A DNA stretch of 57,425 bases from Thermotogota bacterium (GCA_013154295.1 JAADCS010000008.1:1-57425), one strand, 5' to 3'; positions 3,404 through 38,343 are shown, counted from the first letter of the stretch. The notes: generated from the sequence alone by a model not told the origin. Translations and numbers: made by a program.

Positions 3404-3841
3404 TCAGACAGCTTTAGCTCTTTCTCGTAGAAGATTTTCTTGGATTATGTGAGCTATCGTGATCTCTGAAAGAATTTCTTCAATGCGCGGCTGTAGACGA
3501 TTCCAAACGCTTCTAAGAACGCAGTCGGAGACCGAGAATGTACAACCCTTCTGTTCCCCCGGAATCAGGCATTTGGCGAGGCCATACTTACCTTCAATTG
3601 CCTCTATAACATTAAGTATGCTTATACTTTCGGGGGGAACGGCCAAAGTGTATCCACCTTTTTTGCCCCGTGTACTTTTTATCATACCCGCCCGCCTCAA
3701 CTTTATAAGGAGCTGTTCCAAAAAGTTCGGGGGTATCCTCTCCAATGAACTGATTTGGGGGACGCTTATAGGTTCCTCGTTCATGCCCACTCTCGCCAAC
3801 GCCTTGATGGCGTACTCAACCCTTAAAGTAAATCTCAACAA
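3404..3841 (-). CDS. Rrf2 family transcriptional regulator (Fe-S type, three Cys)
   Basis: YAIKAL, FLEQLLxKLRRAG, STRGKKGGYxLA and a C-x7-C-x6-C cluster. Confidence 0.9.
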   Translation of the reverse strand: MLRFTLRVEYAIKALARVGMNEEPISVPQISSLERIPPNFLEQLLIKLRRAGMIKSTRGKKGGYTLAVPPESISILNVIEAIEGKYGLAKCLIPGEQKGCTFSVSDCVLRSVWNRLQPRIEEILSEITIAHIIQENLLRERAKAV

Positions 3842-3843
3842 GG

Positions 3844-3917
3844 AGGTGGCGCCGGGATTCGAACCCGGGAATAGCGGATTTGCAATCCGCCGCCTTAGTC
3901 CGCTTGGCTACGCCACC
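3844..3917 (-). tRNA. tRNA-Cys(GCA)
   Basis: Cloverleaf GGTGGCG...GCGGA-TT-GCA-AA-TCCGC...GGTTCGAATCC...CGCCACC-T; followed by CC only, so CCA is not fully encoded. Confidence 0.95.
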
Positions 3918-3928
3918 CTGAAGATTTT

Positions 3929-3980
3929 ATTATAGAGTCGTCGGATACGCTGTTGCAAGTAAAAATTACGACCTTACAAT
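3929..3980. promoter_or_regulatory. Divergent sigma70-type promoters sharing a palindromic -35 (TTGCAA, 3953-3958)
   Basis: Minus strand has TATAAT at 3929-3934 (18-nt spacer) before tRNA-Cys; plus strand has TACAAT at 3975-3980 (16-nt spacer) before rseP. Confidence 0.6.
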
Positions 3981-3988
3981 AGGCGACC

Positions 3989-5254
3989 GTGTTTGAAGGT
4001 CTCCTATCACTGGTGGCTATCCTGTTTGGATTTGGGCTTCTCATAGTCTGGCACGAGTTGGGTCACCTTTTGGCAGCCCTATCCGTAGGCGTTAAAGTGG
4101 AGGTTTTCTCAATCGGTTTCGGTAGAAGGTTGTTTGGATTTCGTTGGAGGGGTATAGACGTCAGAATTTCGGCTATACCCTTCGGAGGATACGTCAGGTT
4201 CGCTGATGAGGGCAATGCGGGGATACCCCTTGAGTTTTTCTCACGTCCTCTCTGGCAGAGAATCTGGGTGGTGGTGGCTGGTCCTCTTTTCTCCTTTATT
4301 TTAGGTCCCATCCTCATCGCCTTGGCCTTGGGCATCTCCGGACGGTTGAGTGTCATGACCACACGTATATGGCGTTCCCATGTGGTGGAGTTTAAGGATA
4401 TGGATTCGGTCTTGACGCTAAACGGTGAGTTTCTAAGGAGTGGGGAGAGATTTTTGAACCTTATAGGTAGGGAGGGTAAGAAAGATGTAGAGCTTTTGCG
4501 CGGTAACCGTCGCTTAAGCTTCGTCATAACGAGAAGGATCCCCCCCGAAAGTTTGGAGATGAGAATACCGCCCGTCGTGGGAGAGGTTCGGAAGGGGTGG
4601 CCGGCGGAGAGTGCCGGTTTGAGGGTGGGTGATACGATACTTGCTGTAGATAGCCTGCGAATATTCACCTGGCAGCAGTTGGTAGAATACGTTAAGGATA
4701 AGAAAGACGGAAGTGAGGTCCTCTTGGTGGTTAAAAGAGGAAAAGACACCCTCCGGATTCAGGTTAAAGTCCGGAGGGAAGGGGACAGGGGGTTTATAGG
4801 CGTAACCGCTGCGTACCGTACTTACCCCATGTCACCTGTAGAGATTCTCAAGGAAACTGGTCGTTTGACGTTTAAATTTTCGGTTCTACTCTTTGATGCT
4901 CTAAAGAAGGTCGTGAAGAGGGAGGCTAAGGTTGAGGAGACCATAGGAGGACCTATCACTATAGGGGCAGCTATGGCGGTCAGCGCTCAACAAGGGCTTG
5001 ATCGTTACCTCCTACTTTTGGCCGTTATTACTCTACAGCTTGCCGTTATAAATCTGTTCCCTATACCAGGTCTTGACGGGGGACATATACTTCTATTTTT
5101 GGTGGATGAGATATACTACCGGATAAGGAAACGTCGCATTCCCATGCGGGCGTACTTCTGGATCATGATGGTAGGTTTCAGTCTACTCGTGACCTTGGCG
5201 ATCCTGGTTCTTGGTCTTGATGTTTTCAGACTTATGACAGGTAAGCTCAGATGA
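3989..5254 (+). CDS. rseP: RIP metalloprotease RseP (M50 with PDZ domain)
   Basis: HELGH, FSIGFG, AIPFGGYV, AGP, a PDZ domain and NLFPIPGLDGG. Confidence 0.93.
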   Translation: MFEGLLSLVAILFGFGLLIVWHELGHLLAALSVGVKVEVFSIGFGRRLFGFRWRGIDVRISAIPFGGYVRFADEGNAGIPLEFFSRPLWQRIWVVVAGPLFSFILGPILIALALGISGRLSVMTTRIWRSHVVEFKDMDSVLTLNGEFLRSGERFLNLIGREGKKDVELLRGNRRLSFVITRRIPPESLEMRIPPVVGEVRKGWPAESAGLRVGDTILAVDSLRIFTWQQLVEYVKDKKDGSEVLLVVKRGKDTLRIQVKVRREGDRGFIGVTAAYRTYPMSPVEILKETGRLTFKFSVLLFDALKKVVKREAKVEETIGGPITIGAAMAVSAQQGLDRYLLLLAVITLQLAVINLFPIPGLDGGHILLFLVDEIYYRIRKRRIPMRAYFWIMMVGFSLLVTLAILVLGLDVFRLMTGKLR

Positions 5255-5352
5255 TGGGGACCGTACAAGGCGTTCTAACGATGGAAAAATAAATTGGCGT
5301 GATACTGCCAAACCGAAGAAAAGGCCACAACGGAACAGCGATACTACAGTTC

Positions 5353-5384
5353 GTACTCATCTTGGATGTTTCCGCAAAGGAAAG
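5353..5384 (+). repeat. Degenerate copy of the 36-nt palindromic intergenic repeat
   Basis: GTACTCATCTTGGATGTTTCCGCAAAGGAAAG aligns by eye, with gaps, to GTTTCACTTGGAGGCTGTTTGGCCGCAGAGTGAAAC. Confidence 0.4.
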
Positions 5385-5438
5385 CATACCGTTATCACGT
5401 TCAGATATTTAGTCTTTCAGGTCTATAATAACCTCCTC

Positions 5439-7525: not shown

Positions 7526-7547
7526 TACATCGGTATAATTGACGCTT

Positions 7548-8528: not shown

Positions 8529-8540
8529 AATACCAAATCC

Positions 8541-10949: not shown

Positions 10950-10994
10950 AGTAGCTATTCTACCCCCGACCAACGGTTCTCGTGGAGACGTTTG

Positions 10995-11026
10995 AAAAAA
11001 AGAGGGGGGATTTCCCCCCTCTTTTT
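10995..11026 (-). terminator. Intrinsic terminator after rpoC
   Basis: AAAAAAAGAGGGGGGA-TT-TCCCCCCTCTTTTT inverted repeat with a 7-U tract on the minus strand. Confidence 0.85.
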
Positions 11027-14000
11027 AGGATCCTTTGGCCTGCTTTTCCTCCTCCAGTTCTTCAACTTCCAAGAGTATCTTATCCATTCGCCACGCAGGG
11101 AATCCGGTTCCAGCTGGTATCAGATCACCGATTATGACTCGCTCTTTAAGGCCCTTGAGGTTATCCCTCTGCTTACGTACAGCAGCCTCCGCCAGGACTC
11201 TCGGAGCCTCTTCAAAGGATGCCGCCGCCAAGAAGCTGTCGGTGGTGGCGGCTACCTTACTTATACCCAAGAGGATAGGTTCGTATTTGGCGGGTTTCCC
11301 TCCACGTTCTATAACCTTGCGGTTTTCTTCAAGAACACGGTTGAGATCCACTATCTGCTCTGGTAGGAAGATGGTGTTTCCTCCATCCACTATCCTAACT
11401 CTACGGAGCATCTGGCGGATGATGATCTCTATGTGTTTGTCGTTTATCTTCACACCGGAGACACGGTAAACTTTTTGGATCTCCTCCAACAGGTACTCAG
11501 CAGCGGCCTCTTTACCCTTGATGCGGAGTATGTCTTTGGGAGAGATATCCCCGCCTATGAGTTTATCCATGGCTTTAACGCGGTCACCTTTGGAAACCAG
11601 GAGGTACTCACCGTACTTAACCTGGTAAGTCTGGGTGGTACCATCGTCATGTTCTACCACTATGCGGATCATTCCCTTGCGGTCATCTATGATGATATCC
11701 TTGACTATGCCGTCCTTTTCAACTATTACAGCGTTATTCTTGGGTACGCGGGCCTCAAACAGCTCCTCGACCTTGGGCAGTCCTCCAGTTATGTCCCTGG
11801 TCTTGTAGATCAGCCTGGGCACTCTCGCTATTATCTCGCCGGGGTTGACGTAGGGGTTACCGGTACCTTTGAAAATCTCATAGGCCTTCTTGCTCAAACG
11901 GGCATCGTTGGCCAGAGGTATGACCTCTAAGACCTCACCAGTGTTTGGATCCAGTACCTTAGCCTTCGGGTAGAGACGACGGTGCCTGACAACCTCTACC
12001 ACGTACTCTAAGGTGGTTCCTTGGAGATCCTCCTTGAGAGATACCCCTTCTATCAGCCCCTCGAACACCAACTTACCCGCCTTGGTTACCAGAATAGGCA
12101 TGGCGTAGAAGTCCCATTCGGCCAGCACATCTCCCTTCTCCACCCTCTCACCATCGCCTACGAAGATCTTGTAGCCATATTCCAGACCGTACTCTTTATG
12201 ACGTCCATCGCTACCTTCCAAAACGAGCGTTCCTTTGCGCGAAACGACTATCCAACCACCGTCGGCCTGTTCTATGGCCTTGAAATTCTTCCACCTTATC
12301 ACCCCAGGAAAGTGGGCTATATGTTTGGATTCTCCCACTATACGCTCGGCGGCTCCACCTGTGTGTTTAGTTCTTAGGGTGAGCTGGGTTCCAGGTTCAC
12401 CGATGGATTGGGCTGCCACTATACCAACCGCCTCTCCGGTATCCACCTTTTTGCCCGTGGCCAGATTGCGACCGTAACACTTAGCACATACACCGTGGGG
12501 AGCCTGACAGTATAGGACCGAACGGATATGCACCTCGTCTATACCGGCATCCTCTATCCTCTTAGCTTTCTCTTCGGTTATCTCCTCACCGGCTTCCACT
12601 ATCACCTCACCGGTAACGGGATGATAGACATCGTAGAGGGAGTACCTTCCCACTATGCGGTCGGAGAGAGGTTCTATAACCGTTTCCCCCTCCTTGAGAG
12701 CCCGAACGGCCCTTCCCTGTATGGCTCCACAGTCCTCCATCGTGACGACCACCTCTTGGGCGGCATCCACAAGCCTACGGGTTAGGTAGCCGGCATCGGC
12801 CGTCTTCATGGCCACGTCGGAAAGACCCTTACGGGCGCCGTGGGAGGAGATGAAGAACTCTATGGAGGAGAGTCCTTCCTTTAGAGAGGAGAGTACCGGG
12901 GTCGGTATCAACTCGCCGGCCTGTCCCTTCTTGGCTGGCCGTGTCATCAGGCCTCTCATGGCACCCAACTGCCGTGTTTGGTCTATGTTACCTCTGGCTC
13001 CGGACATCACCATCATGTAGAGAGGGTTGAAACCGTCCTTATCCTTCTTTAGGTACTCTAACATCTTGGAGGTGACCTCCTCGGTCACACGGGTCCAGAT
13101 GTCAAAGATTCTCTGCTGTTTTTCGGCGTGGGTTATCTTTCCTTGAGCATGGAGTCTCTCTATCTGCTCGATCTCTTTGAAGGCTTTCTTGATTATACGC
13201 TCCTTTTCAGGAGGTACTATCACATCGTCTATACCGAAGGTGACACCGGACCAGGCTGCCCATTTGAAGCCCAGCTCCTTCATATTATCAAGGAAGTGAG
13301 CGGTCTCCCATGTTCCAAGGTGTTTGTATATTCTTCCTACGAGCCTGGCTATATCCTTCTTGCCGTACTCTTTGTTTATGTCGGAGTAGGTTAGGCCAAC
13401 CTCCCACATCCTCTGGGGAACTATAGAAGCGAAAACGGCCCTTCCGGCTGTGGTGCGTACCAGTTCTCTTTCGGTTTGGGGATCGTATCCGAAGGGATTG
13501 CCACTCTTAGGTACGGAGACGTATATGGGGTCGTTGACATCGACGGCATCGTTCTCGAGGGCCAGGATGGCCTCGTATAGATCGGCAAACTTGGGCAACT
13601 TATCCTCACTCCTGTCGGTAGGTTTCTCCTTGGTTAGGAAGTTTATACCTATGACCATGTCCTGCGAGGCTGTAGCCAGAGGGCCACCATGGGCAGGTGA
13701 AAGGATGTTATGGGGGGCTAAGAGCAGAGCGTAAGTTTCGGCTATAGCCTCCGGATGGATGGGTACGAAGACGGCCATTTGGTCTCCATCAAAGTCGGCG
13801 TTATAGGCTGCGCATACCAGAGGATGAAGTTTTATAGCATAACCTTCAGTCAAAACTGGCTCGAAGGCCTGAATGGATACCCTGTGGAGCGTGGGTGCTC
13901 TGTTAAGCATGACCGGATAATGCCGGGTTATATCCGAAAGTAACTCCAGGGTCTGGTGGTTCTTTTCCTTTATAAACTCGTGTTTTTCGGATCTGGTGTA

Positions 14001-15278
14001 TGCCAAACCCGTCCTCTCTAACTTCTCCTCAAGCCAAGGTTTAAAGAGCTCAAGGGCCATATCTTTGGGTAACCCCATCTGATGAAGTTTGAGCTCAGGA
14101 CCGACCACTATAACGGCACGACCGGAGTAATCCACCCTTTTACCCAATAGGTTTCTACGCAACAACCCCTTCTTTCCACGTAAGTAATCAGTGAGGGACT
14201 TACGGCGCTGACCGCTCCTGTTGGTGGAGGGACGGCGCAAGCGGGAGTTATCAATTAGGGCCTCAACTGCGTGCTTTATTTGGCGTTTTTCGTTTATTAT
14301 CATTAGCTCGAAACCACCCTTCTCGTATATCTGCTTGAGACGATGGTTACGACGGATCACGTCCCTATAGAGATCCGTCAGGTCGGTGTTGGCGAACTTA
14401 CCACCCTCCAAGGGGAGTAGGGGTCGCAGATCCGGAGGCAAAACGGGTATAACCTCAAGCACCATCCAGGCCGGATTCTGACCCGACAGGATAAAAGCTT
14501 CTATTATCTTGAGACGGTTTATGAGACGGGTACGCTCAGTGGGATTGGTGGTGTTCATGAACTTCAAACGGGTATCCCTGTACAGGTATTCAAGGCGGGT
14601 CATCCTCTCGCGGGTCCTTTCATCCTCAACCACCTCGTTCAACTCCTCAAGGAGCTTCTTTATCGCCTCGGCTCCCCATCCGGCGATGAAGGAGTCGGGT
14701 CCAAGGACACTTATGAGCTTGCGATACTCTTCCACCGAAAGCACCTGCCCCTTCTTCATATGGATGGTGCGCGTGCTGCCATCATCCATTTCTATCTTGA
14801 CAGTGGCAGGCGATCTCTTAGGATCAAGGATCACATAGGCGTCATAGTTTATTATGAGCTCAAATTTGCTCTTGGGTATCCCCAAGAGGGTGGGTATGAT
14901 GTAGGGAGGCATCTTGTAAAACCAAGGATGTACTACGGGGGTATTGAGAACGATGTACCCCATCCTCTCGCGGCGTACGTCGGACCTCGTCACCTCCACT
15001 CCGCATCTATCACATATAACTCCCTCGTACCTTCTGCCTTTGAACTTACCACAGGCGCATTCGTAATCCTTGACGGGTCCGAATATCCTTTCACAGTAAA
15101 GACCCCCAGGTTCGGGTTTCAGCGTTTTGTAGTTTATCGTTTCGGCGCTTTTAACCTCACCTGCGCCATACTCCCCCCTTTCGCGTCCCTTTCTCTCGGC
15201 CTCCGACCAACGTTTTATGGCGTCGGGAGAGGCCAGAGAGGCTATAACCGCCTTTATAGTTTTCCAAGTGGTCGCCAT
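11025..15278 (-). CDS. rpoC: RNA polymerase beta' subunit (start moved to ATG 15278)
   Basis: Zinc-finger CACGK...CDRC, NADFDGD and bridge helix GYLTRRL; SD-like GGGGG before MATTWK. Confidence 0.98.
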   Translation of the reverse strand: MATTWKTIKAVIASLASPDAIKRWSEAERKGRERGEYGAGEVKSAETINYKTLKPEPGGLYCERIFGPVKDYECACGKFKGRRYEGVICDRCGVEVTRSDVRRERMGYIVLNTPVVHPWFYKMPPYIIPTLLGIPKSKFELIINYDAYVILDPKRSPATVKIEMDDGSTRTIHMKKGQVLSVEEYRKLISVLGPDSFIAGWGAEAIKKLLEELNEVVEDERTRERMTRLEYLYRDTRLKFMNTTNPTERTRLINRLKIIEAFILSGQNPAWMVLEVIPVLPPDLRPLLPLEGGKFANTDLTDLYRDVIRRNHRLKQIYEKGGFELMIINEKRQIKHAVEALIDNSRLRRPSTNRSGQRRKSLTDYLRGKKGLLRRNLLGKRVDYSGRAVIVVGPELKLHQMGLPKDMALELFKPWLEEKLERTGLAYTRSEKHEFIKEKNHQTLELLSDITRHYPVMLNRAPTLHRVSIQAFEPVLTEGYAIKLHPLVCAAYNADFDGDQMAVFVPIHPEAIAETYALLLAPHNILSPAHGGPLATASQDMVIGINFLTKEKPTDRSEDKLPKFADLYEAILALENDAVDVNDPIYVSVPKSGNPFGYDPQTERELVRTTAGRAVFASIVPQRMWEVGLTYSDINKEYGKKDIARLVGRIYKHLGTWETAHFLDNMKELGFKWAAWSGVTFGIDDVIVPPEKERIIKKAFKEIEQIERLHAQGKITHAEKQQRIFDIWTRVTEEVTSKMLEYLKKDKDGFNPLYMMVMSGARGNIDQTRQLGAMRGLMTRPAKKGQAGELIPTPVLSSLKEGLSSIEFFISSHGARKGLSDVAMKTADAGYLTRRLVDAAQEVVVTMEDCGAIQGRAVRALKEGETVIEPLSDRIVGRYSLYDVYHPVTGEVIVEAGEEITEEKAKRIEDAGIDEVHIRSVLYCQAPHGVCAKCYGRNLATGKKVDTGEAVGIVAAQSIGEPGTQLTLRTKHTGGAAERIVGESKHIAHFPGVIRWKNFKAIEQADGGWIVVSRKGTLVLEGSDGRHKEYGLEYGYKIFVGDGERVEKGDVLAEWDFYAMPILVTKAGKLVFEGLIEGVSLKEDLQGTTLEYVVEVVRHRRLYPKAKVLDPNTGEVLEVIPLANDARLSKKAYEIFKGTGNPYVNPGEIIARVPRLIYKTRDITGGLPKVEELFEARVPKNNAVIVEKDGIVKDIIIDDRKGMIRIVVEHDDGTTQTYQVKYGEYLLVSKGDRVKAMDKLIGGDISPKDILRIKGKEAAAEYLLEEIQKVYRVSGVKINDKHIEIIIRQMLRRVRIVDGGNTIFLPEQIVDLNRVLEENRKVIERGGKPAKYEPILLGISKVAATTDSFLAAASFEEAPRVLAEAAVRKQRDNLKGLKERVIIGDLIPAGTGFPAWRMDKILLEVEELEEEKQAKGS

Positions 15279-15288
15279 GTTTCCCCCT

Positions 15289-18200
15289 TTACTTTTCTTC
15301 TTCTCTTTCCATCTTAAGATCAACCGCGAGCGCCTTCAGGAACTTCGTAAGAACCTGGAAGGTTGCGGGAGTTGAAGGCAAGGGAGGTTCCGTCCCCTCA
15401 CGTATGGCCTTGTAGGTTTGAACCCTTCCTTTTATATCATCGCTCTTCACGGTTAACATCTCCCATAGGGCATAGGCGGCGCCGTGGGCTTCCAGTGCCC
15501 AAACCTCCATCTCTCCGAATCTCTGACCACCCATGTGGGCGCGGCCACCTACGGGTTGTTGGGTTATAAGCGAATAAGGACCTGTAGAGCGAGCGTGGAT
15601 CTTATCCTCGGCCATGTGTATGAGTTTCATTATATACATGGATCCGACGGTTACAGGATATTTGAGGTATTCACCGGTGCGTCCGTCCCTAAGGCGCATC
15701 TTACCGCCCTCGCTTAATCCCGCCAATTTGAGTTGCTCCTTTACCTCCTCCACGGTCAAACTTTGGAAGGCGGGAGCTGCGTACTTAACACCCTTACGAG
15801 CTATCTCCTCGGCAAACGCCTTAAGATCCTCTTTCTCCGCCTCTCTTATCCAGCGTTTTAGGTTTTCATCCCTGTGGGGCTCGTAGAGTTTCATAAGGAA
15901 GGTACGGAGCTCGGAGATGGGTGCTTTGCTCTCCAGGAGTTTACGTAGCTTCTCAGTGTTTCTTATAGCAGCGTAACCCAAAACCGTTTCCAATATCTGA
16001 CCGAAGTTCATACGTGATGGGACACCCAAGGGGTTGAGAACCACGTCAACGGGAGTTCCATCTTCCATAAAAGGCATATCGGCTCTCGGTGCCACTATGG
16101 ATATGACACCCTTGTTTCCATGGCGTCCGGCCAATTTGTCGCCAACGCGGATCTTGCGCTTTTGGGCTATGTAGACTTTTATAACCTGGCGTACTCCGGC
16201 GGGAAGATCGTCTCCCCTACGGATGGTGGCCAGGCCTTCATCATACTCCTCCATCAACCGTTCATAAGCTTCCTGTCCATCTTCCACCGTCTTAATAAAC
16301 TCATCCTCTATCTCTCTGTCCTCAAAGGTGCCGGGTTCCACTACCAGCTTGAGAGGATCAACACTCTGAAGGAATTCCAAAGTTACCTTATCGCCCGCTT
16401 TCAAGATCTCCACTAACTCGTCCCCTTTGCGGATCCATATAGGCTTCTTCACTTCGTGGCCTAAAGCTATAGAGAGCGATTCCCTTAGTGTAGCTCTAAG
16501 ATCGTTTATCCGTAGGTTTATCTCATCAAGAAGCTTTTTCTGACGGGGACCTATAGGTCTGTCGGGGGGTATGGGTCTATCGGGACGTACGCTATCGTCT
16601 ACGTACAGTTCTCCGGGTATGAAGTTACCTTCTTTATCGTTCATCCCGAAGGCCAGAGGATCGTCTGGTAACGATCTGGTGAGTATTTCAACTCCTATAA
16701 CGGTCCCATAGACGCTCGGAGGCACCCTCAAGGAGGTGTTCTTCCAGGGGCGCGACTTTTCGCCGAAGATAGACATAAGAAGTTTCTCCTCCGGTGAGAG
16801 TTCGCTGAACTTTTTCTCCTCCCGTGGAGTGTTTTTACCTACTAAAATATCCCTCGGCGACACCTTGGTCCCTATACGGGCTATGCCGTACTCGTCCAGA
16901 TGCTGAAGTCGAGAAGGTTTCTCCTTGTAAGGTTCGGGAGTTACTATCTCTGGGCCAAGGCGAGTGTCTAAGACGTCGGTGGTAAACTCCAAGATATGGA
17001 AGGAAGTTAGAAGGTCTTCCATGACTATACGATCGGATATGACTATGGCATCTTCGAAGTTGTAGCCGTACCATGGCATGAAAGCTACGGTCAGGTTTCT
17101 TCCTAACGAGATTTCACCACCTACCGAAGATAGATTCTCGGCCAAAATATCACCCTTCTTGACCTTTTGACCTTTCCTAACTTTGGGAATATAGTGTATT
17201 ATAGTATTCTGGCCCGAACGCTCAAAAACACGAAGATGATAGGTTTTTAGGTTAAACCTGGCGCCTTCTGGCCGAATCATTATCTTCTGGAAATCTACAT
17301 AGGCTACCTCACCGTTTTCCTCGGCCAGAATCACGGCTCCGCTGTCTTTAGCGATCTTCTCTTCCATACCGGTACCTACCAAGGGGGGTTCCGGATTGAG
17401 AAGGGGAACGGCCTGTCTCTGCATGTTGGATCCCATCAGAGCACGGTTGGCGTCGTCGTACTCCAAGAAGGGTATCAAGGAGGTTGAGGGGGATATTATC
17501 TGCCTCGGCGATAAGTCCATGTAATCTATATGCTCGCGATCCACGAAGATGTAGTTGCGCCGATGTCTGACTATGATGTTTTTGGCCTTCTTTATGAGTT
17601 TGGTTTTGGGATGAACCTCCAGATCAGCGGGTGCTATGCGGAGATTGTAATCCTCATGAGGTGCCACGTAGGAGATCCTGTTGGTGACCTTACCGTTCTC
17701 AACCTTGACTATGGGGGTCTCTAAGAAACCCAGGTCATTTATGCGGGCGTAGACCGTAGGTGAGAGTATCAAACCTATGTTTTGACCTTCCGGAGTTTCT
17801 ATAGGGCATATACGGCCGTAGTGGGAGGGATGGACGTCCCGTACCTCCAAAGTGGCCGTTTCGCGCGTTAATCCGCCTTTACCTAAAGCTGATATGCGGC
17901 GCTTGTTGGTCAGTTCGGAGAGAGGATTCGTCTGATCCAAAAGTTGGGAAAGGCTGTTTTGGGTAAAGAAGGCTACTACGGATCTGGAAACTATCTTCGG
18001 ATGTACGATCTTACGTAGGGAGCTTTCCTCATCTATAAGCTTTTCGCGAATACCTTTAGCCGTTCTTATAAATTCAGTACGCACGGCCTCATAGAGCTGC
18101 TCGCCAACGCGTTTTATCCTACGGTGAGCCAAATCGTCTATATCGTCCTCTTCACCCTCTCCTCTGTAGAGGTTTATAAGTTCTCTTAAGGCGACTATAA

Positions 18201-19722
18201 AGTCCTCCTTAGTGAACTTTTCAACATCTTCGGCCGGTATTCCGTACCCTTCGAGATCCCTTAGATGTTTTTCAAAGTCAAGGCGGGCGTTTATTTTGTA
18301 CCTACCTACCCTACCCAAATACGTCTTATCCGGTGAGAAAAAGTAGGCCCTTAGGAACTCTTCGGCCGTCTCCAAGGTGGAAGATGAGAACCTTATGGTC
18401 CTGTAGATAAAACGGATGGCTTCCTCCTTGGTTCGCATCTTATCATCCTTCAGAGCCTTGTATATGAGTGAAACGGCAGGATCCTTGGGATCGAAGACCT
18501 TCACCTTCGCCACGCGATGTTCCTTAAGGATCTCAAGTATGTTATCGTCTATGAGAATCGGTTCGACGTTTTTATCCTTTTTGGATTCTTTGAACATGGG
18601 GACGATTATCTCTCCATCCTCATTCACCACATCCTCCGCCAGATAGTATCCTTTCGCCTCGGACACCGATACCTCTTTAGCTATGTGGCCGATGGCCACT
18701 TTAACTATCTGGCGAGGCGTTTCAAGTCCCATGAACCTTAGGAATCGGGTAAGATAGAACTTTCTCTTGCGAAGGACGAAATAAATACCTTTCTCACCCT
18801 CTATACGGAGTTCCATCCAGGGTCCCCTGTAGGGTATGAGCAAGGCTTTGAAGATCTTATTCAAGCCCTCTTCGTCTACTACGAAGTATATCCCTGGAGA
18901 GCGGTGTATCTGGCTTATAACCACCCTCTCAACACCCTGAACGACGAAAGTCCCCCTTTCGGTCATGTAAGGGATGTCGGTAAAGTAAACTACATCTTCT
19001 CTTTCTTCCTCTAACATACCGTTTTCGTCAAACACCCTTTCTATCACCCGTATATGGATCGGAACCGAATAGGTGAGATCCTTCTTCTGGGCATCCTCTG
19101 GGGTGCGGGAAGGCCTCCCTACCTTGTAGTCCAAGTACTCTATTTCAACACGTCCGGATGTACTCTGGATGGGAAAGATCTCCCTTAAAATTTGGTGCAG
19201 GCTCGTTCTTGAACGTGGATCGGAATAATCGAAGAAGGAGTCTTCCACCTCGTAGCGCAGGGATCCGATCCGGGTGGCCACCTCATTCTTGAACTTCTCA
19301 ATTGACTCTTTAGATAGTCCAACGAAACCGATTCGGGTGTCGGGATGGGAGGCCGTGAGATCCAGGAGGCGTTTCATCTCCTCTCTGCTATAGGATCTCT
19401 TAGGCAAAACGATATAATGCTGTTGGGGTTTAGGTATATCCTCCCGCGTCACTTCTTCTCCGAACTCGTCCCTCAGTATGGTTTCAAATTCCTTGGCCAG
19501 TTCGTAACGCTCACTCGTTTTCCCTTTATAAACCTTTATGGCTAAAGCCCATCTTTCGGCCAGATCCCGCAAAAAGTTCAAGAGAGCATTCCCACGACTG
19601 GTAGGACTCCATAGGACGTTGAACCTCTCAGCCAGAAAATCATCATAAGATTTAAGCTGCAAAGCCAAAAGATAGGGTATATCCTTCTCCTCTATCTTTC
19701 CTACCCTCACAACCTGTTGCAT
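15289..19722 (-). CDS. rpoB: RNA polymerase beta subunit with a large N-terminal insertion
   Basis: [23 protein letters not shown] and [22 protein letters not shown]. Confidence 0.98.
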   Translation of the reverse strand: [1477 protein letters not shown]

Positions 19723-19743
19723 GGGTTCCTCCTTTTAAACGCC

Positions 19744-19774
19744 AAAGAGGGGAAGCCCTTGGTGACTTCCCCTC
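19744..19774 (-). terminator. rplL-rpoB intergenic hairpin (attenuator-like)
   Basis: 9-bp stem GAGGGGAAG/CTTCCCCTC followed by a short U tract, at the same position as the known rplL-rpoB attenuator. Confidence 0.6.
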
Positions 19775-19792
19775 GTATCTCGGTGCGCGGTT

Positions 19793-20179
19793 TTACTTGA
19801 GTTCAACCTTGGCCCCAGCCGCCTCAAATTTCTTCTTGATCTCCTCGGCCTCCTCTTTGGAGACTCCTTCCTTTATAACCTTGGGCAGACCCTCTATCAT
19901 GGCTTTGGCCTCTTTGAGGCCCACACCGGTGACCTCGCGGATCACTTTCAGGGCCTTTATCTTGTTGTCTATGGCCGTCAGGACCACGTCAAAGGAGGTC
20001 TTCTCCTCCTCCTGTGCCTCGGCACCGGCGGCGCCGGGGACAGCGGCTACGGCCACAGGGGCGGCGGCACTGACGCCGAACTTGTCCTCCAAAGCTTTGA
20101 CAAGCTCGGCGAGTTCCAAAACCGTCAGCTGCTCAATTGCGGCGACTATCTCCTCCACCGAGAGTTTTTTCTCTGTCAT
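19793..20179 (-). CDS. rplL: 50S ribosomal protein L7/L12
   Basis: [23 protein letters not shown] and GLKEAK. Confidence 0.98.
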
Positions 20180-20182
20180 CTT

Positions 20183-20707
20183 CTAACCCTCCTTTTCTTT
20201 CTTTTCCTTTATAGCGTTAATCGCATATACGAGGTTACGCATAACACCACTCAGAACCCCCACGATACCGTAAAGGGGACCAGCCACGGCTCCCACGACC
20301 TGGGCACGTAGTTCTTGAGTCGAGGGAAGTTTGGCCAACCTCTCTATCTCCTCCTTATCCAAAAACTGTCCATGCATTATACCGGCCTTCAGCTCTCCCT
20401 TTTCCACCTCTTTGGAGAAGTCGGCGAATATCTTGACCGGCTCCACCTCATCGGAAAATGATATGATTATGGCCGTAGGACCGACTAAGACGTCCGTTAT
20501 CTCCGGTATCTTATCGGCGAAGACCAACTTCATGAGATTGTTCTTTACGACCTTAACGTTGTAGCCCTTCTCCTTGAGCTGTTTTCGTAGATCGTTCATC
20601 TCCGCCACGGTTAGCCCCTTGAAATCGAAGAGAGCTATCATAGTGGCCTCCTCTCCCCACTGGCGGAGTTGTTCGAGCATCTTAGTTTTCCACTCTCTCG
20701 TCTTCAT
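20183..20707 (-). CDS. rplJ: 50S ribosomal protein L10
   Basis: GLTVAEMNDLR, VVKNNL and LAKLPS; synteny. Confidence 0.96.
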   Translation of the reverse strand: MKTREWKTKMLEQLRQWGEEATMIALFDFKGLTVAEMNDLRKQLKEKGYNVKVVKNNLMKLVFADKIPEITDVLVGPTAIIISFSDEVEPVKIFADFSKEVEKGELKAGIMHGQFLDKEEIERLAKLPSTQELRAQVVGAVAGPLYGIVGVLSGVMRNLVYAINAIKEKKEKEG

Positions 20708-21429
20708 ATCTTAACCCCCCTCTTACGTAATTCGTTTATAACGTCGTTGAGATCCACCTTCACCGAGGGTCCCATGGTGGTCGTCAGGTATACGGACTTG
20801 AAAAGACTCCCCTTAACTCCCTGGGGTTTGTTGCGAGCTATCTCCTCCAAAACCGTCATGGCATTCTCGTAGAGCTGTTCAGGGGTAAAGTCGGTCTTAC
20901 CGATGATAACGTGGATGTTACCCGTCTTATCGTTGCGAATTTCAACGCGACCCTTTTTAAGTTCCCTGACCACATCGCCGACGTTCTGGGTGACGGTACC
21001 GGTTTTGGGACTGGGCATCAGGCCTCTTGGCCCCAAAATGCGACCCAGCTTACCCACCTCTCTCATAGCTTCTGGTGTGGCCACCACCGCATCGAAATCC
21101 AACCATCCCTGTTTGATCTTCTCAATGTACTCCTTGAAACCTACGTAGTCAGCTCCAGCTTCCTTGGCCTCCTTCTCCTTTTCGGGGTTACTGGTTAGAA
21201 CTAACACCCGGACCTTCCTACCGGTGCCATGGGGAAGTACGACAGGTATACGGATGTTCTGTTCAGGTTTGCGAGGATCTATGTTCAGCCGAGCGTGAAG
21301 TTCAACCGATTCTGTGAAACGGGCACTTTGGAACTTACGTACCATCTCGACGGCCTCTTTGAGAGGATACGTTTTGCTTAGATCAAACATTTCTAAGAGT
21401 TTGCGGTATCTCTTTCCAACTTTGGCCAT
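20704..21429 (-). CDS. rplA: 50S ribosomal protein L1
   Basis: [17 protein letters not shown] and TTMGPS. Confidence 0.98.
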
Positions 21430-21430
21430 C

Positions 21431-21871
21431 TCAACCCTCCACGATCTTTATACCCATGCTACGGGCGGTTCCTTCTATCATGCGGACGGCAGCTTCAAGA
21501 TCGGTGGTATTCAGATCGGGCATCTTCTGCTTGGCTATTTCCACGACCTGAGAGCGCTTTACGGTGCCTACCACCTGTTTTCCAGGTTCACTGGCGCCTT
21601 TCTCAACGCCTGCGGCCTTCTTGAGAAGTACGGAGGCCGGTGGCGTTTTGAACTCAAGGTCAAACGTCCTATCTTTGTATATGGTTATGACGACGGGAAT
21701 GATAAGACCCATCTTGTCCCGTGTGGCATCGTTAAACTGCTTTACAAATTGCATCAAGTTGATGCCATAGGGACTGAGTGTGGGTCCCACCGGAGGCGCA
21801 GGAGAAGCCTGACCGGCGGGGAGCTGGAGTTTTACCGTCGCCACGACCTCCTTCTTCCTTTTTCTGGCCAT
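21431..21871 (-). CDS. rplK: 50S ribosomal protein L11
   Basis: PAPPVGP, KTPPAS and GTARSMG. Confidence 0.98.
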
Positions 21872-21883
21872 CTTTCAACCTCC

Positions 21884-22810
21884 TTAGCTTATCCTTTCAA
21901 CCATGGGGAACCTAAAGTCCAGTTCCAAGTACTTCCCAAACTCCTTAACTTTAACCTTCACCAATCCCTTCTCCTCGTTTATATCAACCACCTCCCCCTT
22001 TCTGCCTCTGAACGCACCTTCTACTATCTTGACCTTATCGCCTACCTCAAACGGCGTCTTGCGCTTACTCTCCTCCTCTTGCTGGCGAATTAGTTCCTCT
22101 ATGCGACGTATCTCCTCTTCACTCATCTTCATGTATGCGGGTTCTCCGGTTTCGGGATCCCTCGCTCTGATAGGTCGGGTGCGGGAGATCATCTGAGTGA
22201 TCCTATCTATGACCTTTTGGTCTTCCTCCATCTTTATGAAGATGTAACCCCGATATATCGGTTTTTCTATTACTCGCGTTTCCTCTATGGTTTCGTATTG
22301 ACCTGGTCCAGGTTTTAGGACGCTCCTCTTAATAGAGTATGATATACCCCATTCCTTTAGTTTCTTCTCCAAATCCGGTAGCACCCTTTCGTTTATACCC
22401 ATAATGGTAGGTTTTAAACCTAAGGCCTTTAGCAGTTTGAAGAGATCCTCAAGGCGGTAACGATCCACCTTAACAAAGCGATACACGCCACGCTTTATCT
22501 CCTCCACAGGATAGGGAAGATCGGCTATAGAACTGAGTTTTCCTCTAAAACCTATGGGGTAAGACTGAACACTTTTAGTAAACTCGACCGGAATACCGTT
22601 CTTCCAATCTTCAACGATTATATCAACGAGGCGAGGTTTTCTTTTGCGTTTGATAAAACGGGTGGTACGTATGGTGGGGACGAATACGCTTTCAACTTTA
22701 TCCTCAAGCTTCAAATCTTTGATTAACTTCTCAATTCTCCTCTTGGTACGGAGTTCTTGACCCGATACGGTCCAAAATACTAGCCAGTTCTTTTCCTTCA
22801 CATCCTTCAT
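21884..22810 (-). CDS. nusG: Transcription termination/antitermination factor NusG with a large internal insertion
   Basis: NGN domain (W...SGQE...VFVP...IYRGYIFI), KOW domain (GDKVKIVEGAFRG) and secE-nusG-rplK synteny. Confidence 0.9.
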   Translation of the reverse strand: MKDVKEKNWLVFWTVSGQELRTKRRIEKLIKDLKLEDKVESVFVPTIRTTRFIKRKRKPRLVDIIVEDWKNGIPVEFTKSVQSYPIGFRGKLSSIADLPYPVEEIKRGVYRFVKVDRYRLEDLFKLLKALGLKPTIMGINERVLPDLEKKLKEWGISYSIKRSVLKPGPGQYETIEETRVIEKPIYRGYIFIKMEEDQKVIDRITQMISRTRPIRARDPETGEPAYMKMSEEEIRRIEELIRQQEEESKRKTPFEVGDKVKIVEGAFRGRKGEVVDINEEKGLVKVKVKEFGKYLELDFRFPMVERIS

Positions 22811-22817: not shown

Positions 22818-23054
22818 TTACCCTCCTAAAATCATCAGTACAACCCGCGAAATGAGGAAGTCGGAGATCCATATAAAAAGGGTGGTGAAGGCGGATATAG
22901 CTAAGACGCCAGCGGTCCCCACTACCAGGCTGTTCCAATCGGGCCATGTTAGGCGGCCCAACTCCTCCTTCATTTCCTCCATAAACTCTGGTAAGTTAAA
23001 GATCACCTCCCCTAACTTCCTAAGGGTTTCCTTTAGGGATTGCATTACGTTCAT
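22818..23054 (-). CDS. secE: Preprotein translocase subunit SecE
   Basis: ELxRLTWP motif followed by one TM helix; synteny. Confidence 0.9.
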   Translation of the reverse strand: MNVMQSLKETLRKLGEVIFNLPEFMEEMKEELGRLTWPDWNSLVVGTAGVLAISAFTTLFIWISDFLISRVVLMILGG

Positions 23055-23218
23055 ATGCGAGCCTCCTTGTGGAGCGTATGTTTACGGCACCACTTACAGT
23101 ATTTTCGTAGCTCCATCTTCTTCCTGTTGGAGCGCTGTTTACTTATGGCGTAATTAAATCTACCACACACACTACACTTCAAGCCTACAGTGTGTCTTCC
23201 TTGGGTCTTTTTGGCCAT
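23051..23218 (-). CDS. rpmG: 50S ribosomal protein L33, zinc-binding C+ form (true start ATG 23218)
   Basis: LKCSVC...NY...KYCKWCRKHTLHKE; the longer ORF in the track runs into the tRNA. Confidence 0.95.
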   Translation of the reverse strand: MAKKTQGRHTVGLKCSVCGRFNYAISKQRSNRKKMELRKYCKWCRKHTLHKEARI

Positions 23219-23221
23219 AAA

Positions 23222-23295
23222 CAGGGCCGGAGGGACTCGAACCCCCAACCTGCGGATTTGGAATCCGCCGCTCTACCAAATTGAGCTACGGCCCT
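23222..23295 (-). tRNA. tRNA-Trp(CCA)
   Basis: AGGGCCG TAGCTCAATTTGGTAGAGC GCGGA-TT-CCA-AA-TCCGC ... GGTTCGAGTCC CGGCCCT-G; no encoded CCA; TATAAT at 23329-23334. Confidence 0.95.
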
Positions 23296-23418
23296 ACAAA
23301 AAAACTTCCACCCTCCCTTGCGGAAGGTATTATACGGTCGTTTTACATCGTGTGTGAAACCAAAGATAAAGAAGAATACCGACCCAAAAGATAAGGTAAG
23401 CTGCTATTAGATAGACCA

Positions 23419-24894: not shown

Positions 24895-24964
24895 TTGTTG
24901 GCCAAGGCGAATCATTTATGATTCAAAGAATCGGAGGGTTTCGAAAGTGTTCTAATCACCGTTC

Positions 24965-25147: not shown

Positions 25148-25157
25148 TATCATTATC

Positions 25158-25901: not shown

Positions 25902-25910
25902 GCAAGTATT

Positions 25911-26987: not shown

Positions 26988-27000
26988 AACGATACCGATT

Positions 27001-28443: not shown

Positions 28444-28514
28444 GGTGGCAATTGTACCGCCGATTCATCAACGAATACCGAGGATGACGTCTTCGGTTGT
28501 ATAATACCGGCCTG

Positions 28515-32064: not shown

Positions 32065-32067
32065 AGC

Positions 32068-33132: not shown

Positions 33133-33141
33133 AGGTGGAGA

Positions 33142-35444: not shown

Positions 35445-36229
35445 CGTAAGGTATATGCTACTGCCAGAATATGCCTATCTCCAAAAAGACCCAGCGGGTT
35501 ATAAACGTAAGAGAAAACTATACGCCGATAACGAAGGGTGAAGCCGAAGTGGGTACCAGCTAACCTATCTCGGCCGTATCCTCCGTATAGGTGGGCATAG
35601 TGGGAGTTGTAGCCTATCCCAAAGCGAAGCGTACCGTAGTCTAAGCCCAAACCTAAGACGTAAGCTTTACCTCCTACGTAGTAGTATCTACCTTGAACGT
35701 AAGCAAACAACCTCTGAAAGGATAGGTCGGCTCCTCCCATGGCTTTAAAGGAGGTAAGAGTACGTCTCAAACCCACGGGTAGAAGTTCATATCCCAAACC
35801 ATCTATGCTTCCCCTGAAGTTCCACCCTCCCCAATCGGTTTTAAAGGTCCTTTGAAAGTTTGCTACCACACCGAGGGCTACCCCTCGGCTTTGGGGTGAG
35901 AGGGAAACATAGCGCAGGGAGAGACCAGCTGCGATCCTCCATCCGTTAAAGTCTAAAGTATGCGCTCCATCCAACGAAACGAAGTTGGAAGAGAAAGACC
36001 CCACCACGTTGCCCTTTTCGTCGGTTTGGAGCATGCCGCCAGAGGTAAAGAACTTACTTCGTAAGCGATAGGAAGAATAAGAACCGCCGATGATCCCACC
36101 GTAAGAACCGGCAGCGTAATTGAAAACCGATGTATAGAACCTCATATTTGGGAAAACGTAACCCTCCAACTCCCACGGTGAAAAGTCACCGTTAAACACG
36201 TCGTACGCGTATGAGAAAAGTAGGAGCAT
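35441..36229 (-). CDS. Putative outer-membrane beta-barrel protein (PorV/PorQ-like)
   Basis: Alternating Gly/aromatic strands; SGGMLQTDEKGNVVGSFS resembles the PorV-type loop; the C-terminus is YVYNPLGLFGDRHILAVAYTL. Confidence 0.55.
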   Translation of the reverse strand: MLLLFSYAYDVFNGDFSPWELEGYVFPNMRFYTSVFNYAAGSYGGIIGGSYSSYRLRSKFFTSGGMLQTDEKGNVVGSFSSNFVSLDGAHTLDFNGWRIAAGLSLRYVSLSPQSRGVALGVVANFQRTFKTDWGGWNFRGSIDGLGYELLPVGLRRTLTSFKAMGGADLSFQRLFAYVQGRYYYVGGKAYVLGLGLDYGTLRFGIGYNSHYAHLYGGYGRDRLAGTHFGFTLRYRRIVFSYVYNPLGLFGDRHILAVAYTLR

Positions 36230-36238
36230 GGAAGTATT

Positions 36239-36697
36239 CTACTGCTGACTTTTGATTCTCCTAACCTCTTCTAACATAGAGAGAACCGCACTCGCCGCTT
36301 CCCAACCTTTGTTTCCGAACTTTCCTCCGGCTCTGTTAAAACCCTGCTCCAAGGATTCAACCGTAAGAACAGCCAAACCCACGGGTTTCTTGATCTTCGT
36401 AGCCACCTCCAACAGAGATGAGAGAACAGCCACAGAGAGATGTTCCCAATGGGGCGTTTCCCCTCTGAGTATGCAACCTACAACCACAAAACCCTTATAC
36501 CTGTCCTCATCTCCCAGTATGGCGAGCATTTGAGGGAGTTCAAAAGAGCCGGGGGCATTCACCACCTCGTAGGTGTAGCCCCCGGCTTTTAATCTACCAA
36601 TGGCCCCCTCTCTCAACCTTTCCGTTACGACCCCGTTAGAGAGGGAGACCAGAACACATATCTTGCTCTCTTCTTTACTTTTGCTTCCCGTCGCCAC
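36239..36697 (-). CDS. ribH: 6,7-dimethyl-8-ribityllumazine synthase
   Basis: PGSFELP, GCILRGETPH and RAGGKFGNKG. Confidence 0.93.
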   Translation of the reverse strand: MATGSKSKEESKICVLVSLSNGVVTERLREGAIGRLKAGGYTYEVVNAPGSFELPQMLAILGDEDRYKGFVVVGCILRGETPHWEHLSVAVLSSLLEVATKIKKPVGLAVLTVESLEQGFNRAGGKFGNKGWEAASAVLSMLEEVRRIKSQQ

Positions 36698-38267
36698 CTA
36701 AGTCGCTCCCCTCCGGCAGGAGAACATAGACCTCCACGCGCCTGTCCTTGGCAAGACCTTTACCTGTAGGTTCGAAGATGGTGTAGTTGGCCACTTCCTC
36801 AAACCTATCCTCACTGAGGTCGAACTGCCTCACCAGATACTCTTTCACGGCTAACGCTCTCTTCTTGGAGAGGAGTTCATTGTAGAAAGCCCCTCCTCTA
36901 CGGTCGGCGTGACCACGTATGACTACCTTGGCGTAAGGTTCCTTGGACAGGATCTCGCCCACCTTATCCAACTCCTTCTGGTACTTGGGCTTTATGATGG
37001 TCTTGTCGGTGTCGAAATAAACCACGGCCACCAGTTTGGGCTTACGGGAGAGTTTCTTGTAGAGTTTGACTTTCAAAACAGCGTCGGTAGTTAGATTCAC
37101 ACCTACATCTATGGGATGATAGTTCTCGTCATCCTTGGAGATGGTCAGTAGATAGTTGGAAGCGGGTAGGCTATCGTTGCGGTAGGTGCCGCTCTCATCC
37201 GTGGTGCCTTCGGTGGTCACCTTACCTACGACCTTCACCTTGGCGCCGCTTATCGGCTCCCCGGAAAGTGAATCCACCACTATCACCATGAGGGTTCTGG
37301 GTCCAAGCTCCTCAACTGCCTGAACTACGGCCGGGCCTCCACCAACACCCATCATAGAAGGACCTACGGGACCGTATATACGCTCGGCTATACGGGCCGG
37401 CGAGACGTGAGCGCCTACGAAAAGCTCCCAGTTCCACTCCCACTTTTCGGGATCGTCGGGGGAGAGGTAATACCTGTTGACGTAGTAGTTCATGGAGATG
37501 TTGGTACCGGCCGAGAGTACGAGCCCACCGTTGAAGAACCTGTAGCGCAGCATCGGCGTAGCGAACAGATAGTCGCTATTAAAGGATATAGGACCGTAAT
37601 ACTTCAGCTCAAAACCGCTCTCCAGATCGTAGTAGGTAGTGAATATGCCAAAGCCCACATAGAGAGGATTATCCGCCAGACCGCCCTTTTTGGTATCTAC
37701 GTTGTATCCGAAGCCCAAAGCGAGGTTTGCCAGAAGACGGGTAGACCATTGCTCACTTATGAAATCATATCCACCGGAAACGCCGAGTCGTGCCCCCAAG
37801 AGACCCTCACGCACTTTGAAAGAATCAACGTAGGTACCAACACGTATAGGCCCCTTCTGGGTTTCTCCTACAGGTACTAACAAGCTCAAGAGAGCGGAAA
37901 TACCCCAGTTTCTTTTTCCTATGAACTGGTATTTGGCTCCAAGCTCAAAGTCCCTCATGCCACCGAACCAACGGTCGTCGCGGGTAGTGTCGTCCAACTG
38001 CCCTTTATTTAACCAGTTGATACCTTTAAGCGTGGCGTAGAGTTCCAAGTTACGGACGGGTACTGTGTTTATGGAGCCCCAACCTAAAAGAAAATCCTGT
38101 ATACCGTAAGGTTGGCTCCATATCTTCTCCGCGTATATGGTGGTTTCCAGATAGTTTATATAACCACCGCTTACAAGTTTTTCCGTGGAGGCTCTCCAAT
38201 CAAAAACGTCAAAATAACCGCTTGCCCCCGTATTGGATAGGTAGCTAACGAGCATCAGCATGGTCAT
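36675..38267 (-). CDS. OmpA-family protein: N-terminal barrel-like region, carboxypeptidase-regulatory-like domain and peptidoglycan-binding domain
   Basis: VDSLSGEPISGAKV...TDESG; VYFDTDK, GHADRRG..YN.LLS.KRA and DRRVEV. Confidence 0.85.
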   Translation of the reverse strand: MTMLMLVSYLSNTGASGYFDVFDWRASTEKLVSGGYINYLETTIYAEKIWSQPYGIQDFLLGWGSINTVPVRNLELYATLKGINWLNKGQLDDTTRDDRWFGGMRDFELGAKYQFIGKRNWGISALLSLLVPVGETQKGPIRVGTYVDSFKVREGLLGARLGVSGGYDFISEQWSTRLLANLALGFGYNVDTKKGGLADNPLYVGFGIFTTYYDLESGFELKYYGPISFNSDYLFATPMLRYRFFNGGLVLSAGTNISMNYYVNRYYLSPDDPEKWEWNWELFVGAHVSPARIAERIYGPVGPSMMGVGGGPAVVQAVEELGPRTLMVIVVDSLSGEPISGAKVKVVGKVTTEGTTDESGTYRNDSLPASNYLLTISKDDENYHPIDVGVNLTTDAVLKVKLYKKLSRKPKLVAVVYFDTDKTIIKPKYQKELDKVGEILSKEPYAKVVIRGHADRRGGAFYNELLSKKRALAVKEYLVRQFDLSEDRFEEVANYTIFEPTGKGLAKDRRVEVYVLLPEGSDLGGDGKQK

Positions 38268-38270
38268 AAG

Positions 38271-38343
38271 TGCCCCGCGAGGGACTCGAACCCCCGACCC
38301 GCGGATTAAGAATCCGCTGCTCTACCGTCTGAGCTAGCGGGGC
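38271..38343 (-). tRNA. tRNA-Lys(CTT)
   Basis: GCCCCGC TAGCTCAGACGGTAGAGC A GCGGA-TT-CTT-AA-TCCGC ... GGTTCGAGTCC GCGGGGC-A; no encoded CCA. Confidence 0.95.

Follow-up and report, generated by a model that had tools for sequence, protein, structure and literature searches.

Punctuation of animal mitochondrial transcripts by transfer RNAs (tRNAs) was reportedly described by Ojala, Montoya and Attardi in 1981. In plant mitochondria, tRNA-shaped structures known as t-elements direct endonucleolytic cuts that generate messenger RNA (mRNA) ends, and in Escherichia coli the thrU-tyrU-glyT-thrT-tufB operon forms a tRNA-mRNA co-transcription unit with a shared promoter, the tRNAs being cut from the common transcript. 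Here we analyze a contig of 57,425 nucleotides (nt) from a Thermotogota bacterium assembly (GCA_013154295.1, JAADCS010000008.1:1-57425), hereafter called the window, in which each tRNA gene ends directly before the start codon of a protein gene: an Rrf2-family regulator gene, rpmG at the head of a ribosomal protein and RNA polymerase operon, and a gene for an OmpA-domain protein. This abutting layout is real and exceeds chance, and the excision of the tRNA probably creates the 5' end of the downstream message.

Published accounts provide three points of reference. Animal mitochondrial tRNA punctuation is covered in PMC3790967. In genomes of GeneMarkS-2 group C, a Pribnow box precedes the start of operon-first genes by a short and constant distance, and a Shine-Dalgarno (SD) sequence serves the others, the box-to-start distance being 6-8 nt in Mycobacterium tuberculosis (PMC6028130). 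In Propionibacterium acnes many mRNAs are leaderless, including some with GUG and UUG starts, and the tRNA genes are mostly transcribed singly, with CCA-less ones among them; no obvious tRNase Z homologue is reported, and cleavage sites are seen at tRNA 3' ends (PMC3848588).

In the window ARAGORN predicts exactly three tRNA genes, each of them on the minus strand (Table 1). The junctions were read from the sequence, and the discriminator base was placed by the 7-base-pair acceptor pairing. The initial annotation had stated that these tRNAs end 2-3 nt before start codons, encode no full CCA and leave no room for an SD or a promoter, and all of this stands: the spacers measure 2, 3 and 3 nt, none of the three genes encodes CCA (tRNA-Cys shows CC, then T), and neither a -10-like box nor an SD lies between any of the tRNAs and its start. 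A promoter inside the tRNA and aimed at the start codon was considered and rejected on reading, since none of the three starts is preceded at 6-9 nt by a TANNNT box. Within the window no tRNA follows the 3' end of the Rrf2 gene, of rpoC as the operon's last gene, or of the OmpA-like gene.

Two of the three starts are anchored by protein profiles. The Rrf2 protein matches TIGR02944 from residue 1 (residues 1-132, profile positions 1-130) and TIGR00738 from residue 3 (residues 3-133, profile positions 2-131; 123.5 bits), and L33 residues 1-55 correspond to positions 1-55 (of 56) of TIGR01023. The domains of the OmpA-like protein, PF00691 (OmpA) and PF13620 (CarboxypepD_reg), both sit in its C-terminal half, and its start therefore rests on conservation: the N-terminus is kept in all five genus-level loci (L051-L055), and L055 has no start candidate near the N-terminus other than its first ATG.

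The same arrangement recurs throughout the genome to which the window belongs (G000; 1.97 megabases in 169 contigs, with 92.9% completeness and 6.1% contamination, the window being contig C54). For the 48 tRNAs with at least 100 nt downstream we recorded start codons that open an open reading frame (ORF) of at least 50 amino acids (aa). A start lies within 5 nt of 13 of the 48, against 7.1% of 20,000 random positions (binomial p = 2e-5), and within 15 nt of 18, against 17.2%; after ordinary stop codons a start within 5 nt follows in 12.8% of 1677 ORFs. Among the 18 pairs, eleven are anchored by an NCBIfam profile matching from the first residues (MnmA with a spacer of 9 nt, TsaE 6, NuoH 1, GatC 1, Rrf2 2, L33 3, MurA 1, Prs 2, L28 2, PurB 5 and MurI 5), one, the OmpA-like gene, by conservation, three belong to no family and three were judged spurious. 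Twelve G000 genes supported by homology or conservation thus begin 1-9 nt after a tRNA. Genome-wide tRNA-to-start distances, which the initial annotation had named as a check on its idea, show that the spacing extends to other tRNAs.

The ORFs discarded as spurious are those behind tRNA-Arg(CCT) (64 aa), tRNA-Tyr (73 aa, behind a terminator hairpin) and tRNA-Ser(GGA) (103 aa, running through tRNA-Tyr). At C143:13045-13497 a transfer-messenger RNA gene with the tag ANASYALAA lies 7 nt ahead of a tRNA-Arg(CCT). The three family-less ORFs (89, 365 and 86 aa) have no profile anchor at their start; on reading, similar ORFs appear to follow the same tRNAs in G007, a genome of another genus of the same family. 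Their missing anchor is the one point in favor of true starts lying further downstream with signals of their own, an explanation that is scarcely credible: for most named genes the profile match begins at residues 1-5, L055 offers no alternative start codon near the N-terminus, and reading of the first codons of L33, L28, MurA and Rrf2 reveals no SD.

CCA is encoded in only two of the 50 G000 tRNAs with enough flank, both of them duplicates on contigs that are likely foreign (C52 and C135). The three trailer positions after the discriminator are Y, T and T in 47, 37 and 37 of the 50, whatever follows. The assembly appears to hold foreign contigs, the signs, on C46, C113, C129, C119, C52 and C135, being three different 16S 3' ends, a second L28 gene with only 52% identity to the first, and duplicate tRNAs. 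Some junction genes themselves serve tRNA function. One nucleotide separates tRNA-Gln(TTG) (C48:6446-6519, minus strand) from the downstream TTG start of gatC, which encodes a subunit of the amidotransferase making Gln-tRNA(Gln), and tRNA-Gly(GCC) and tRNA-Leu(TAG) precede the tRNA-modification genes mnmA and tsaE, respectively. This could be coincidence or a functional link.

G000, from an uncultured bacterium of a hot environment, and its genus-level relatives belong to candidate division WOR-3, and the window's junctions are shared among them. tRNA-Trp followed by TTT or CTT and the ATG of rpmG occurs at 16 of 20 loci, spanning two genera of the family of G000 and one genus of a second family, in which the N-terminus of L33 differs. 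The other four rpmG loci (L014-L017) have a spacer of 30-45 nt with GGGAGG or AAGGAGG, and two of them encode CCA. tRNA-Cys, 1-2 nt and the TTG of the Rrf2 gene form the junction in all 12 genomes of family f1 (L021-L032); in other lineages the gene begins with ATG and has no tRNA before it, and at ten loci a box of the TAAAAT or TTTAAA type ends 6-9 nt before that ATG. tRNA-Lys(CTT) with CTT or TTT and the ATG of the OmpA-like gene is found at all five genus-level loci, and the spacer is again CTT in G007 (L149).

Junctions elsewhere in the genome behave in the same way. tRNA-Lys(TTT) stands 0-3 nt before the TTG of murA at all 10 informative family loci, and in several other families murA has a -10 box 6-9 nt before its ATG or GTG; tRNA-Gly(TCC) stands 2-4 nt before the ATG of rpmB at all 12 family loci, and in other lineages rpmB has either an SD (GGAGG) or a -10 box directly before its ATG, the box standing 6-9 nt away in sister families. 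Orthologues thus swap layouts: the Rrf2 gene, murA and rpmB exist both abutted to a tRNA and with a leaderless promoter, and rpmB and rpmG exist in an SD-led form as well.

All tRNA loci of three relatives were then compared with G000, whose random positions, the only ones drawn, serve as a proxy for the relatives too. In G007 a start lies within 15 nt of 34 of 46 tRNAs and at 0-5 nt in 28, and 22 of the 34 ORF fragments at these junctions match an NCBIfam family, all 22 within 15 residues of the model's N-terminus. In G017, from another family of the same order, the counts are 24 and 21 of 45, all of the latter at 0-4 nt; 14 of the 24 ORFs match NCBIfam families from the N-terminus, and a Trp-L33 pair exists beyond the 24, having fallen below the ORF length filter. 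In G020, from another family of the same class, only 10 of 46 tRNAs have a start within 15 nt and one of 46 at 0-5 nt, four tRNAs encode CCA and SD-bearing spacers are present; this genome is a natural negative control. With G007 and G017 high and G020 at 1/46, the trait sets apart a group of order rank and reaches its peak in G007.

These counts bear on the view that the layout is a by-product of genome compaction, with read-through from the tRNA promoter, SD-independent internal initiation (e.g. at A/U-rich unstructured starts) and a cut that is irrelevant to expression. Such an origin would fit a genome that is about 89% ORF-covered by our crude call and in which starts also crowd behind ordinary stops. 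It is nevertheless quite unlikely, because a start follows within 5 nt after 27-61% of the tRNAs in G000, G007 and G017, compared with 7% at random positions and 13% after stops, and because the equally compact G020 has the single case. Moreover, the spacers stay tiny over genus and family divergence while the flanks change, and where relatives lack the layout, a proper SD or a correctly spaced -10 box takes its place without exception. Folding energies over the first 40 nt do not separate the classes (-5.4 kcal/mol for junction genes, -5.6 for the leaderless class and -5.5 for the SD class), so junction genes fold like other gene starts, as compaction would also have it.

The best duplex with the anti-SD in the 20 nt before the start averages -1.7 kcal/mol for the junction genes of G000 and -1.8 kcal/mol for those of G007 and G017, on a level with the leaderless class (-2.0), against -3.6 for random 20-mers and -5.5 kcal/mol for other genes. 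An SD hidden in the tRNA 3' end was rejected on these values, which are weaker than those of random 20-mers. The anti-SD has not been lost: CACCUCCUUU is retained at the 16S 3' ends, which read CACCTCCTTT in G000, where an SD-like motif accompanies 610 of 1764 ORFs.

Many ordinary genes of G000 appear to start without a leader. Hexamers resembling a -10 box begin at -15 to -12 before the start in 454 of 1728 ORFs (105, 132, 90 and 127 per position, against a background of about 5), and when the box is sought over candidate starts it is found for 689 of 1764 ORFs, against 29 of 4677 internal start-like codons. About one third of ordinary genes thus carry a leaderless-type promoter with a -10 box 5-10 nt before the start, a class whose size is approximate because ORFs were called crudely, without a gene finder. 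From the promoter spacing, leaders of roughly 0-3 nt follow, the same range as the tRNA-to-start spacers. The tRNA genes have promoters of their own: a TA[TAC]AAT box begins 14-23 nt before the 5' end of most G000 tRNAs. These promoters show an extended -10 motif, roughly cccTTATAATAtcc, mostly without an obvious -35 hexamer, and the predicted 5' leaders of the tRNAs are only a few nucleotides long.

Taken together, the absence of an SD, the leaderless promoters and the layout swaps argue for the tRNA boundary as the source of an mRNA 5' end that promoters provide elsewhere. The scenario we consider probable makes no assumption about the enzyme. Transcription would begin at the compact promoter that each tRNA gene carries, with a TATAAT or TAAAAT box a few nucleotides ahead of the gene, and run on through the protein gene or genes behind it; this co-transcription is suggested because the box sits upstream of the tRNA and nothing promoter-like lies between tRNA and start. 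RNase P would trim the short 5' leader, an endonuclease would cut at or just after the discriminator base, and a class-II nucleotidyltransferase would add CCA to the tRNA. The freed mRNA, its 5' end 0-5 nt (at most 9) from the start codon, would then be translated by the leaderless route already used for about a third of this lineage's genes. A tRNA gene would in this way act as promoter and 5'-end maker for the gene behind it, including the rpmG-secE-nusG-rpl-rpoBC operon. The initial annotation had likewise proposed that tRNA 3' processing yields near-leaderless mRNAs; the anatomy, the lack of SDs, the promoters of the tRNAs, the leaderless habit and the conservation all favor that proposal, and what finds no support is RNase Z as its agent.

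Several points weigh against this scenario. That tRNA and message share a transcript, that a nuclease cuts it at or just after the discriminator, and that translation then starts without a leader are all steps that we infer from sequence, and the leaderless class to which the junction genes are likened is known only to an approximate size. No RNase Z (TIGR02651) was found in G000 at E <= 0.001, which in an assembly 92.9% complete is no proof of absence, and RNase E/G, RNase J and RNase PH were not found there either. Half or more of the junction genes begin with TTG (6 of 12 supported ones in G000 and 22 of 34 in G007, against 77 of 689 promoter-type leaderless genes; Fisher p = 0.001 and 2e-12, respectively), and leaderless translation in E. 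coli depends strongly on AUG. Finally, the leaders of 6-9 nt predicted for MnmA and TsaE exceed typical leaderless ends. The TTG excess might arise because ends made by promoters require a purine at +1, which cut ends do not, and because the T-rich trailer merges with a TTG start.

The initial annotation had attributed the cut to RNase Z acting after the discriminator base. This exact version agrees with the 48 of 50 tRNAs that encode no CCA and with their Y-T-T trailers, as such trailers on CCA-less tRNAs fit RNase Z substrates in Bacillus subtilis, and with the two class-II (PolyA_pol-head) nucleotidyltransferases of 384 and 463 aa in G000, the longer with an HD domain, which are of the CCA-adding type. 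It is nonetheless very improbable. Across 41 genomes (G000 and 40 relatives) TIGR02651 gave no match above its cut-off, and assembly incompleteness is an unlikely cause, the same blank recurring in many genomes. PF12706 retrieves just two G000 sequences, a beta-CASP/RMMBL nuclease of 438 aa and an ORF cut short where contig C167 ends, and an RNase-Z-like protein of 231-239 aa, found in 5 of the 41 genomes, is missing from G000, G007 and G017, which all have junctions. The truncated C167 ORF (9607-9802, plus strand), of the metallo-beta-lactamase fold, looks like a UPF0173-type hydrolase by reading rather than by profile, and its ATG follows a TTTAAAAT box at a distance of 9 nt, a leaderless promoter layout. 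Of the two enzymes that the initial annotation had suggested looking for, the CCA-adding one is thus represented twice and rnz was not found. RNase P RNA (207.7 bits) and RNase Y (623 bits) are present in G000, and RNase Y and the 438-aa beta-CASP nuclease are the only candidates for the cutting enzyme.

The missing 3' endonuclease gene also gives room to the idea that the tRNA-mRNA chimera is translated uncut, the tRNA serving as a 5' stabilizer or ribosome-loading structure and being matured only later, once 3' exonucleases have removed the message as far as the acceptor stem. Trimming by exonucleases would account for the maturation of CCA-less tRNAs without RNase Z, and P. acnes likewise has CCA-less tRNA genes and no obvious tRNase Z in the available account; the same account records cleavage at tRNA 3' ends despite that lack (PMC3848588), which speaks for a cut. 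Judging from ribosome geometry, a stable fold of 74 nt lying 0-3 nt ahead of the P-site codon would be expected to collide with the mRNA exit path. Furthermore, the spacers of 0-5 nt match the predicted 0-3-nt leaders of promoter-type leaderless genes, a match expected only if the 5' end lies at the tRNA boundary, and orthologues swap between tRNA-abutted and promoter-leaderless forms. Translation of an uncut chimera is therefore unlikely, and release of the message at the tRNA boundary is preferred.

A wider version of the excision scenario is offered tentatively, with the balance slightly against it: in this order of WOR-3, tRNA genes may serve as portable expression cassettes, each pairing a compact promoter with a tRNA whose excision yields the 5' end of a leaderless message. 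Depending on the genome, a quarter to 60% of them would drive housekeeping genes such as those for L33, L28, L19, L31, MurA, Prs, PurB, Asd and NuoH, with a cut made by a tRNA 3' endonuclease other than RNase Z, for which the beta-CASP nuclease and RNase Y are candidates, and a UUG preference arising from the cut ends. Prs follows tRNA-Ser(CGA) in G000 and tRNA-Ala(TGC) in G017, which suggests that a tRNA gene and its compact promoter may move as a unit. At L163 (G007, C8:31523-32333) five tRNAs (Ile, Pro, Pro, Pro, Val) share one promoter box before the first, and the last ends 0 nt from the TTG start of an adenosylhomocysteinase gene; the last tRNA of a cluster is thus the one that abuts the gene. 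Two ARAGORN calls among the relatives may be erroneous or reflect unusual tRNAs: a tRNA-Asn whose anticodon is ATT (L182, G017), followed after 2 nt by an ATG opening an ORF, and a 'tRNA-Stop' with anticodon TTA that overlaps a tRNA-Asp locus (L228, G020).

If tRNA excision does work in this way, free-living bacteria would use what is known as a mitochondrial peculiarity as a routine maker of translatable mRNAs, and tRNA supply would be tied directly to the expression of ribosomal, RNA polymerase, cell-wall and nucleotide-synthesis genes. It would also point to another tRNA 3' endonuclease in bacteria without RNase Z and would provide a natural test of leaderless initiation on 5'-monophosphate ends and on UUG starts. 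On the practical side, gene finders built around an SD or a promoter box would put such starts in the wrong place, and ORFs next to tRNAs may be shortened or lost from annotations.

The coordinates of the three junctions and their neighbors are given in Table 1.

Table 1. Features of the three tRNA-gene junctions and adjacent genes in the window.
Feature	Position	Strand	Basis	Remarks
TATAAT -10 box, tRNA-Cys promoter	3929..3934	minus	sequence reading	begins 17 nt 5' of the tRNA
TTGCAA -35-like hexamer, tRNA-Cys promoter	3953-3958	minus	sequence reading	
tRNA-Cys(GCA)	3844..3917	minus	ARAGORN; acceptor pairs 7/7	no encoded CCA; discriminator T3844
CC spacer, tRNA-Cys discriminator to start codon	3842..3843	minus	sequence and acceptor pairing	2 nt
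Rrf2-family regulator gene	3404..3841	minus	ORF list and profiles	145 aa; TTG start 3841-3839; no SD
TATAAT -10 box, tRNA-Trp	23329..23334	minus	sequence reading	begins 39 nt 5' of the tRNA; kept in relatives
tRNA-Trp(CCA)	23222..23295	minus	ARAGORN and acceptor pairing	no encoded CCA; discriminator G23222
TTT spacer, tRNA-Trp to rpmG	23219..23221	minus	sequence and acceptor pairing	3 nt
rpmG (ribosomal protein L33)	23051..23218	minus	TIGR01023	55 aa; ATG 23218-23216; no SD; first gene of the operon
secE	22818..23054	minus	PF00584	own SD AAGGAGG at 23062-23068; start overlaps rpmG stop (ATGA)
Remaining operon: nusG-position ORF, rplK, rplA, rplJ, rplL, rpoB, rpoC	11025..22810	minus	ORF list and Pfam	
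nusG-position ORF	21884-22810	minus	named from position only	308 aa; between secE and rplK
TATAAT -10 box, tRNA-Lys promoter	38356..38361	minus	sequence reading, ORF ends	contains the TAA stop (38357-38359) of the glycosyltransferase gene
tRNA-Lys(CTT)	38271..38343	minus	ARAGORN and acceptor pairing	no encoded CCA; discriminator A38271
CTT spacer, tRNA-Lys to ompA-like gene	38268..38270	minus	sequence and acceptor pairing	3 nt
OmpA-domain protein gene	36675..38267	minus	ORF; conservation	530 aa; ATG 38267-38265; no SD
Group-1 glycosyltransferase gene (context)	38357..39355	minus	ORF and Pfam	ends 13 nt 5' of tRNA-Lys

Pfam matches in the operon behind rpmG comprise L11, L1, L10, L7/L12 and the Rpb2 and Rpb1 domains. 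The ORF in the position of nusG has no Pfam match at E <= 1e-8 and is much longer than expected, NusG typically having roughly 180 aa; it may carry an insertion.

In the literature outside subscription journals we found no description of bacterial genes set flush behind tRNAs or of leaderless bacterial mRNAs made by tRNA excision, and the word tRNA does not occur in the main text of the paper that defines group C (PMC6028130). G000 shows the Pribnow-box pattern of that group, together with SDs and an intact anti-SD for other genes. The difference lies at the junction genes, where a tRNA takes the place of the promoter box and the 5' end would come from cleavage. The layout can be viewed as an extension of the known bacterial leaderless organization. 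With P. acnes the lineage shares leaderless-type genes, CCA-less tRNA genes and the lack of an obvious RNase Z, whereas the available part of that account describes neither tRNA genes set against start codons nor tRNA excision as a source of leaderless mRNAs (PMC3848588).

The proposed unit resembles the tufB operon in placing tRNA and protein gene under one promoter, yet the tufB spacer is long and contains an SD, and the spacers here measure 0-9 nt and have none; the classical form with an SD-bearing spacer exists in the relatives, at the rpmG loci L014-L017. Unlike the t-elements, which are non-functional organellar mimics, the structures involved here are the working tRNAs of the cell. Mitochondrial tRNA punctuation is the closest known system. 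In both, tRNAs abut protein genes at a distance of zero to a few nucleotides and the messages lack an SD, and in both, if our proposal is correct, tRNA excision defines the mRNA end, the message is leaderless or nearly so, and CCA is added after cleavage. Mitochondria use RNase P at the 5' side and RNase Z at the 3' side, whereas here RNase P RNA was found and an RNase Z gene was not. In contrast to the mitochondrial case, there is no genome-long polycistron and most tRNAs have a -10 box of their own, the tRNAs mark only the 5' side of messages, and the whole arrangement is found in a free-living bacterium that has SD-led genes as well.

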